A DNA stretch of 64,000 bases. It comes from Eledone cirrhosa. Its lineage: Eukaryota. The notes below the pieces were generated by a model that was not told where the DNA came from, ran no database searches, and was given only the letters and a program-made list of their open reading frames with translations. The stretch spans positions 78,864,001 through 78,928,000 of the forward strand of contig OZ024743.1 in the NCBI GenBank assembly GCA_964016885.1. The letters run 5' to 3'. The translations under genes and the position numbers were made by a program. Below are positions 49,921-51,084 of this stretch, piece after piece; positions within the stretch are counted from its first letter, which is position 1; each line of letters starts with the position of its first letter.

Positions 49921-51084
49921 ATACATTATGAAGAGAGAAGAAACATTTAGATATAATTAGTAATAAAATGTATCATACCTAAACTGTTCCTAAATTCCTC
50001 GACTACGTAGTTTCGTGGCATAAACAAAAACAATATATCAAAGATATAGAGTCCTTGCGAGGTCTGCCGACTTATCAAGAGGATACCTCATTTTACTAGT
50101 CTCAAGAACGCGTCTACACGACGTGAGAAAGAATCCCAAAAGGCGGAGGGGGAGACGGTCACGCGATATAACGGTCGAGAAACAGAGCTAAGCCTCTTAT
50201 AACCACGAAGAAAATACCACGGAGGCGGAGGGGGCATTCATATCGAGGCCGTAGAAGAGGTAGTGAAGAAGGCGAGAAGTATGAGTAATGGAAGCTTTCC
50301 AGTTGTCCCCACACTTCAAAGATTGCTCGACCAGAGGGAGTTATTAATATATTTAGAAACACACAGATACATGCGGACACACACATATATACATGAATGC
50401 ATCCGCACCCAACTGTGAGTTAAGGGTGCCAACTTCACCGATGTTGCTCAATGAATGACTGGGACAGACCAATTCAGTTTGAACCAGACTGAACCAGTAT
50501 CCCTCTGGTCGAGCAATCTTTGAAGTGTGGGGACAACTGGAAAGCTTCCATTACTCATACTTCTCGCCTTCTTCACTACCTCTTCTACGGCCTCGATATG
50601 AATGCCCCCTCCGCCTCCGTGGTATTTTCTTCGTGGTTATAAGAGGCTTAGCTCTGTTTCTCGACCGTTATATCGCGTGACCGTCTCCCCCTCCGCCTTT
50701 TGGGATTCTTTCTCACGTCGTGTAGACGCGTTCTTGAGACTAGTAAAATGAGGTATCCTCTTGATAAGTCGGCAGACCTCGCAAGGACTCTATATCTTTG
50801 ATATATTATTTTTGTTTATGCCACGAAACTACGTAGTCGAGGAATTTAGGAACAGTTTAGGTATGATACATTTTATTACTAATTATATCTAAATGTTTCT
50901 TCTCTCTTCATAATGTATTTTTAACTCTGATACTGGTTCAGTCTGGTTCAAACTGAATTGGTCTGTCCCAGTCATTCATTGAGCAACATCGGTGAAGTTG
51001 GCACCCTTAACTCACAGTTGGGTGCGGATGCATTCATGTATATATGTGTGTGTCCGCATGTATCTGTGTGTTTCTAAATATATT
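49921..51084. mobile_element. Inverted, circularly permuted non-coding element in (TA)n with two U3-A8 hammerheads
   Basis: About 49921-50338 is inverted at about 50501-50918, and about 50346-50499 is inverted at about 50930-51084. Confidence 0.88.
50756..50843 (+). ncRNA. Variant-core type I hammerhead (mirror copy 49996-50083, - strand)
   Basis: tcctc-TTGATAA-gtcggca..tgccac-GAAA-ctacgtag-TC-gagga. Confidence 0.8.

Follow-up and report, generated by a model that had tools for sequence, protein, structure and literature searches.

RESULTS

Two permuted head-to-head arms of a 591-nt unit

At 49.9-51.1 kb of the window, by which we mean the whole 64-kb stretch of DNA that was analysed, lie two head-to-head arms of one unit, each with segments A and B of this unit, a linker of its own and a predicted hammerhead ribozyme. 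The features are listed here in their order along the window; X1, X2 and X3 are public sequencing runs.

49906..49923, (AT)n run that follows the left arm on its 3' side, likely the left half of the target microsatellite
49921..50339, minus strand, segment A of the left arm (419 nt), which ends 3' at the proximal priming site, about 77-80 nt past the cut
49996..50083, minus strand, predicted type I hammerhead, left copy (relaxed motif scan); cut after 50001
50340..50344, minus strand, linker y (5 nt), leading from B into A and closing the 591-nt unit; also in X1 and X3
50345..50501, minus strand, segment B of the left arm (157 nt); the left arm's 5' end, 10 nt downstream of its own priming site
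50500..50501, two shared bases; putative microhomology uniting two cDNA ends
50500..50918, plus strand, segment A of the right arm; the right arm's 5' end, 5 nt downstream of its own priming site
50756..50843, plus strand, predicted type I hammerhead, right copy (relaxed motif scan); cut after 50838
50822..50922, plus strand, long hairpin, predicted to tie up the hammerhead's 3' half and to include linker x; the proximal priming site is at its 3' base
50919..50928, plus strand, linker x (10 nt), leading from A into B; unbroken coverage in X1 and X2
50929..51085, plus strand, segment B of the right arm, corresponding to the 'tail' of Penelope-like elements (PLEs) and ending 3' at the distal priming site, 247 nt past the cut
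51078..51119, (AT)n run, then (GT)n, at the 3' end of the right arm; likely the right half of the target microsatellite

When the region was compared with the window by BLASTN, segment A at 50500-50918 (419 nt) was found inverted at 50339-49921 on the minus strand with 418 of 419 bases identical, and segment B at 50929-51085 (157 nt) was found inverted at 50501-50345 on the minus strand with 157 of 157 bases identical; one base differs between the arms, which are thus 99.8% identical. The left arm, read on the minus strand, has the order B-y-A and is 581 nt long (0.98 turn of the unit), and the right arm, on the plus strand, has the order A-x-B and is 586 nt long (0.99 turn). An initial annotation had described a B-A left arm on the minus strand and an A-x-B right arm on the plus strand, and the alignments bear this out with coordinates that agree within 1-2 nt; the unit of about 590 nt that had been proposed is 591 nt long (A-x-B-y, 419+10+157+5 nt). 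The arms of this unit overlap by 2 nt (50500-50501), and linker x is exclusive to the right arm and linker y to the left arm.

On the unit, the 5' ends of the two arms are 162 nt apart and the 3' ends, which are the priming sites, are 167 nt apart, and both arms span the hammerhead cut site. The left arm falls at least 10 nt and the right arm at least 5 nt short of its own 3' priming point, and perhaps up to about 15 and 9 nt, respectively, as a few bases at the 3' end of each arm could be (AT)n target. The 3' ends of both arms continue directly into (AT)n and therefore no target-site duplication can be read. The junction between the arms has no palindrome, and the order is permuted rather than mirrored. 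A head-to-tail array of two or more complete hammerhead units is absent from the locus, where the arms stand head-to-head and each covers less than one turn. As each arm has a private linker, the arms differ by one base and both linkers are present in public runs, an assembly artefact at 49.9-51.1 kb is unlikely.

Apart from short microsatellite-like matches, no further copies of the 591-nt unit were found by BLASTN in the 64-kb window, and self-BLAST revealed no terminal direct repeats in the unit, including a pair of long ones. The unit contains no credible ORF, in agreement with what had been noted before: stops occur in all six frames, and the longest ATG ORF in the doubled unit has 75 aa, crosses the B-y-A junction and begins in a (GT)-rich stretch.

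A predicted hammerhead and a strongly paired sense RNA

In both arms, where the initial annotation had claimed a hammerhead, the relaxed motif scan predicted one of type I, with the cut after 50838 in the right arm that had been given before. The motif at 50756-50843 has a helix I of 5 bp, a U3-A8 core replacing C3-G8, a bulged helix II of 2+4 bp that contains a long hairpin insert, and a palindromic helix III of 10 nt; a stricter scan misses it on account of the helix II bulge after 2 bp. With the relaxed scan, 6 matches were obtained in the window and 0 in each of 10 block-shuffled controls, and no hammerhead was detected on the antisense strand of the unit. Rfam returned 0 hammerhead matches at the gathering score, just chance miRNA-type matches by E-value and no other ribozyme class in the unit, and a search of viral contigs and metagenome contigs with hammerhead patterns gave no match. 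The U3-A8 variant has been described in PLE hammerheads, and so have close hammerhead pairs on opposite strands (PMC4209133; here and below, published work is cited from the accessible parts of the texts). A hammerhead motif is no guarantee of activity, since self-cleavage was seen in just one of the nine elements tested by Li et al. 2026 (bioRxiv 10.64898/2026.07.22.740005).

In structure predictions, the active hammerhead fold lies 1.1 kcal/mol over the local minimum, and the whole circle is predicted to have -168 kcal/mol when folded freely and -160 kcal/mol with the hammerhead forced, which is a difference of 8 kcal/mol. The predicted fold of the unit is branched and not rod-like. Compared with 30 shuffles, the stability of the sense circle has a z of -5.6 and that of the antisense circle a z of -1.4. 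Among the variant sites listed, 10 of 10 are unpaired or pair-preserving in the sense fold (7.25 expected, P 0.017) and 7 of 10 in the antisense fold. This pattern may be taken as modest support for selection on RNA structure, and predicted structure and variant pattern together would favour the sense strand as the RNA.

Other hammerhead pairs and PLE-like remnants in the window

Five head-to-head pairs with hammerhead boxes in both arms are present in the window, namely the pair described above and those at 1231-1663, 44185-45080, 30555-34067 and 19983-23810, the last four of which have (AT)n at both ends. In all five pairs the predicted cut lies 32-81 nt before the end of one arm and 111-247 nt before that of the other. 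For three of the five, namely the pair at 44 kb and both pairs with ORFs, recognition relied on the core boxes alone and the relaxed hammerhead scan was failed, and the count omits the inverted pairs with no detected hammerhead (2095-2908, 27618-28409, 34187-34311 and 52473-52973). The spacing suggests a proximal/distal rule, by which paired arms use different start sites for reverse transcription, which is what priming of both strands by a single protein dimer on one RNA would be expected to produce. By eye, in most of nine arms the priming site has a short purine-pyrimidine-T-C-pyrimidine motif about 2-15 nt after an AT-rich stretch. A priming-site motif of 11-25 nt is all that the unit at 49.9-51.1 kb shares with two other non-coding hammerhead units in the 64-kb window.

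The pair at 44185-45080 is built from an unrelated 467-nt hammerhead unit in the same permuted head-to-head order, with arms of 0.91 and 1.02 turns; it is older, its arms being about 91-93% alike and the GAAA box of the right-arm hammerhead broken. At 3158-3670 a 478-nt hammerhead unit forms a single arm (3158-3663) of 1.06 turns with a 35-nt exact terminal repeat. It has a 25-nt stretch (88%) in common with the B-y-A junction of our 591-nt unit, and a 3' fragment of its family lies at 53365-53480. The most conventional retrozyme-like element of the window is found in the region 45120-46060, where a hammerhead unit of about 540 nt makes 1.62 head-to-tail turns on the minus strand (45133-46007) and is accompanied by a 51-nt inverted arm. 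The pair at 1231-1663 stands head-to-head between (AT)n runs and does not complete a full turn; it shares an 11-nt motif with the distal site of the 591-nt unit, and by eye its 3' region resembles the tail at 33979-34067.

The remaining two pairs have coding remnants, with RT and GIY-YIG-like frames at 33170-31888 in the pair at 30555-34067 and an RT frame at 22479-21835 in the pair at 19983-23810. Their inverted arms measure 880 and 772 nt and their tails about 90 and 79 nt, and both have hammerhead core boxes. Among the ESM Atlas look-alikes of the PLE-like ORF fragments, GIY-YIG was present on 28-35% of members and RVT_1 on 11%, which we regard as leads only, and the PLE identity that we presume for these fragments also rests on known motifs. 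Pfam assigned no family to any of the four fragments, and a homolog search among longer proteins returned none for one fragment. An autonomous partner with a homologous end was not found for the 591-nt unit in the 64-kb window, and the unit has no homology to the two ORF-bearing pairs.

In general, the window is microsatellite-rich DNA of animal type, possibly from a cephalopod, and full of retroelement remnants. A perfect palindrome of 792 nt at 27618-28409 (arms 100% identical, no spacer) has internal direct repeats, adjoins (AT)n and contains no hammerhead that could be found; it may have formed by fold-back very recently or reflect an assembly artefact. At 52473-52973, inverted arms of 142 nt (89%) flank a middle part of 220 nt and end in (AT)n, again with no hammerhead found. 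Minus-strand frames at 24089-26896 resemble a Helitron Rep/PIF1 helicase remnant, judging by known motifs. LINE remnants lie at 13617-16184, 38884-41982 and 59789-63271, and Pfam assigned RVT_1 or zf-RVT to frames at 13617, 60458 and 62008. A SINE-like repeat of about 200 nt is present at 51867-52279 and in about ten other places, often as inverted pairs, and two of its copies lie just to the right of the permuted arms. ARAGORN detected no tRNA gene in the window.

The unit in public sequencing runs

Of 24 runs listed, 20 from 16 studies contain short words of the unit and no RNA run is among them, which has no bearing on expression. Four of the 24, the only ones used as evidence here, were aligned to the right arm (88% likeness); from the Hi-C run X22 about 1/100 of the run was sampled and 0 reads aligned, which is too little to count as a test. 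The library types of the runs are off record or guessed and the material consists of contigs, so that it bears on sequence and not on strand, ends or RNA level; contigs also omit rare variants, and summed depths are not copy numbers. A near-identical unit is present in X1, X2 and X3, which are labelled as three different organisms. In X1 it forms a single contig of 621 letters, the first 30 of which are the same as the last 30, which gives a closed loop of 591 nt that joins 51085 to 50500 via the same 5-nt linker and has four bases unlike the window. X2 contains one contig that covers 50500-51070 with the same four differences. The contigs of X1 and X2, labelled as two organisms from two studies, are uniform and have neither flanks nor (AT)n ends. 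In X3, where the summed depth is very high, 1264 contigs were obtained with 538, 408, 280 and 38 of them at 99% or more, 95-99%, 90-95% and below 90% identity, respectively, which represents a diverse family. Its B-to-A joint occurs with the same linker (depth 1996) and with a 9-nt variant linker (depth 1372). Three bases that are common to both arms in the window account for less than 0.3% of the X3 depth and are absent from X1 and X2, which fits one template molecule or one donor but could also reflect a species difference.

Among the X3 contigs listed, loose (AT)n ends follow 50918 in at least eight and 51083 in at least three; X3 contains 69 further loose ends. The same two (AT)n-joined 3' ends are thus found in X3 and in the window, which means that priming sites recur and that start points are not random. 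The head-to-tail joint of the unit is present in X1 and X3, where an array, a circle and permuted single copies would look alike. Tandem DNA arrays or a pool of permuted copies can equally produce a closed loop, and what the runs show is hence circular or tandem sequence rather than circular RNA.

DISCUSSION

Proposed copying of a circular RNA once from each strand

The account towards which we lean, and which we regard as reasonably probable, is that the locus represents one insertion of the non-coding 591-nt unit, for which a PLE enzyme copied a circular RNA once per cut strand of an AT microsatellite. According to this model, a longer-than-unit transcript would be cut by the hammerhead after 50838 and ligated to a 591-nt circle, in which the long hairpin would keep the ribozyme off. 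A PLE RT/GIY-YIG protein provided in trans from another locus would then nick both (AT)n strands, and one strand would prime where A ends (the proximal site) and the other where B ends (the distal site), 167 nt away, each site lying just 3' of a long hairpin. Each cDNA would make one round and stall 5-15 nt short of its own primer, after which the two cDNA ends could anneal via 2 nt and fill-in would produce the head-to-head pair. Classical twin priming with collision is ruled out, as it predicts one turn in total and not two.

The initial annotation had inferred a circular or tandem template of about 590 nt from the permutation. This proposal is supported by the closed 591-nt loop with the same linker in X1; however, permutation alone does not require a circle, since a linear B-y-A-x-B RNA of about 750 nt would contain both arms. 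What favours the circle is that each arm crosses the cut site and stops 5-10 nt before its own start. As both arms run through the cut site, the template was not a self-cleaved linear monomer and must have been either re-ligated or uncut, and as each arm has a private linker, the template of one arm was not the other arm.

Alternative templates and origins

The strongest competitor, which we consider possible though clearly less probable, is that a linear uncut transcript in tandem or partial-tandem form (at least B-y-A-x-B) was copied by the same PLE priming on both strands, with arm lengths that were set by stops of the RT at protein-bound initiation sites or by the 5' end of the transcript. 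PLEs are normally partial tandems, and in vitro uncut RNA was the main substrate of an anole PLE, on whose insertion hammerhead mutants had no effect; furthermore, there were no RNA-seq reads ending at the cut site (PMC11167929). The window itself contains a head-to-tail hammerhead unit of 1.62 turns at 45133-46007, and the loop of X1 and the joint of X3 are equally compatible with tandem DNA. A palindromic helix III suits dimer cleavage (PMC4209133), and transcripts with a single ribozyme may consequently remain uncut.

The stops of the two arms have to be weighed in the same manner. If stops were uniform along the unit, the chance of two falling within 15 nt would be about 6e-4, a value that was calculated post hoc; the two stops coincide with similar short motifs adjacent to the priming sites, which is in agreement with a linear multimer and makes it probable that stops are not uniform. 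By our own arithmetic, a linear multimer with a fixed chance of stopping at each site would yield the observed pattern in up to 1/16 of cases. Among the other arms in the window are three that overrun their starting point (1.02, 1.06 and 1.62 turns) and a short one (0.09 turn), so that stalling at one turn is not a rule; five of the seven arms with a measurable period in the window are at 0.91-1.06 turns, a count that is biased because the period is measurable in long arms only. On the other hand, a linear multimer has to explain why neither arm stops at the other kind of site and both halt at their own kind, exactly one unit upstream. In addition, the 5' ends differ by 162 nt and for this reason one fixed transcript start cannot account for both arms.

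A viroid-like origin appears improbable to us. In that case the unit would be a circular RNA that is copied RNA-to-RNA and moves between hosts, and the genomic pair would be a copy endogenised by a PLE enzyme. The uniform full or near-full copies in X1 and X2, which lack flanks and have the same four differences in spite of different organism labels and two studies, would agree with this idea, and cloned mussel retrozyme circles have been reported that are unmatched in the genome, for which RNA-RNA replication was one explanation raised (PMC7229834). However, the hammerhead is present on a single polarity, the predicted fold is branched and not rod-like, and X3 contains a diverse family with (AT)n-joined ends as expected of a genomic repeat family; related species, cross-sample contamination or contig simplification would explain X1 and X2 more simply. 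The boldest version, to which we give equally little credence, is that a free self-propagating ribozyme circle crosses animal species and is endogenised by a dimeric Penelope-type enzyme that copies one circle from both strands, exactly one turn each; if true, the locus would document directly that a viroid-like RNA had been written into the genome of an animal.

Least probable, to the point of being very doubtful, are origins of the second arm in which the first arm or an antisense template served for fold-back or self-priming, in which the DNA was inverted or in which the assembly went wrong. For head-to-head PLE repeats whose junctions are palindromic, antisense self-priming is the model given by Arkhipova et al. 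2013 (PMC3846280), and the arms are 99.8% identical and share the three bases that are rare in X3 and absent in X1 and X2, but x occurs in the right arm only and y in the left arm only, so that private linkers do not fit this model and neither arm was copied from the other, the order is permuted with a non-palindromic junction, both linkers and both 3' ends are found in public runs, and fold and variant pattern point to the sense strand as the RNA.

Returning to the circular template, the element class is ordinary and it is the geometry that is the interesting part. On a circle the 5' end of an arm trails its own 3' end by one unit, and this geometry allows a genome-only test of circle copying by PLE enzymes. 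That hammerhead circles serve as templates of PLE reverse transcriptases is a hypothesis of 2014 and 2020 (for 2020, PMC7229834), and how PLEs make inverted structures has been called undefined (PMC8557442). In the main texts of the open-access literature, we found no description of permuted head-to-head arms of one turn each or of a proximal/distal rule for paired arms. If the circle reading is true, the locus would be a genomic footprint of this long-proposed step, the PLE-type copying of a ribozyme RNA circle; if it fails, the unit is an ordinary new retrozyme-like family.

Comparison with known systems

By its sequence features the unit likely belongs to the metazoan non-LTR retrozymes, with which it shares a size of a few hundred bases and the lack of coding capacity, a single type I hammerhead and a predicted circle that is strongly self-paired. 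Retrozymes of animals build up as circles (PMC7229834); the animal circles have been proposed as templates of PLE RTs and the units as derivatives of PLE pLTRs (PMC7229834; bioRxiv 10.64898/2026.07.22.740005), and recently it has been argued that metazoan non-LTR retrozymes represent non-autonomous PLE derivatives (bioRxiv 10.64898/2026.07.22.740005). At 591 nt, the unit exceeds the 170-400 nt given for invertebrates but is inside the range of 51-972 bp of Li et al. In the same work, an active element is defined as a head-to-tail array with at least two complete hammerhead units (bioRxiv 10.64898/2026.07.22.740005), whereas the copies described here are head-to-head with less than one turn each. 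Further differences are the U3-A8 core of our hammerhead and the self-pairing that is predicted to block it; such a block has been described for plant retrozymes, viroids and some mussel circles but not for most animal ones (PMC7229834). The accessible part of PMC13282606 mentions neither ribozymes nor retrozymes.

The anatomy of the insertion, in turn, is the standard one of PLEs, which the initial annotation had not noted. In PLEs an inverted copy with a 5' truncation is often present and (TA)n is the preferred target (PMC8557442), and a PLE protein, when purified, was able to cut both strands of AT-rich DNA and extend them, with starts at two internal sites of the RNA between which the tail lies (PMC11167929). 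Like EN+ PLEs, the locus has an inverted 5'-truncated copy in head-to-head orientation, two alternative 3' ends and an AT-rich/(TA)n target (PMC8557442), as well as a hammerhead shortly upstream of the 3' end, its U3-A8 variant and a pair of hammerheads on opposite strands (PMC4209133). The 3' ends in the window at the equivalent of 50918 and at 51085 correspond to the two alternative ends of a PLE tail. Unlike PLEs, the unit has no ORF, its arms are one unit long and mutually permuted, and within the 64-kb window no homology to a pLTR beyond the short motif was found. The interval between the 3' ends is 167 nt here, compared with 30-40 nt in published PLEs and 76-106 nt in the four other pairs of the window.

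Pseudogenes derived from circRNAs offer a last comparison. Those described by Dong et al. in 2016 are said to stem from back-spliced exons of protein-coding genes, whereas the locus described here holds a ribozyme repeat with PLE-type ends. What the two have in common is a non-collinear genomic order, which for circRNA-derived pseudogenes has been taken as the mark of a reverse-transcribed circle (PMC4897178).
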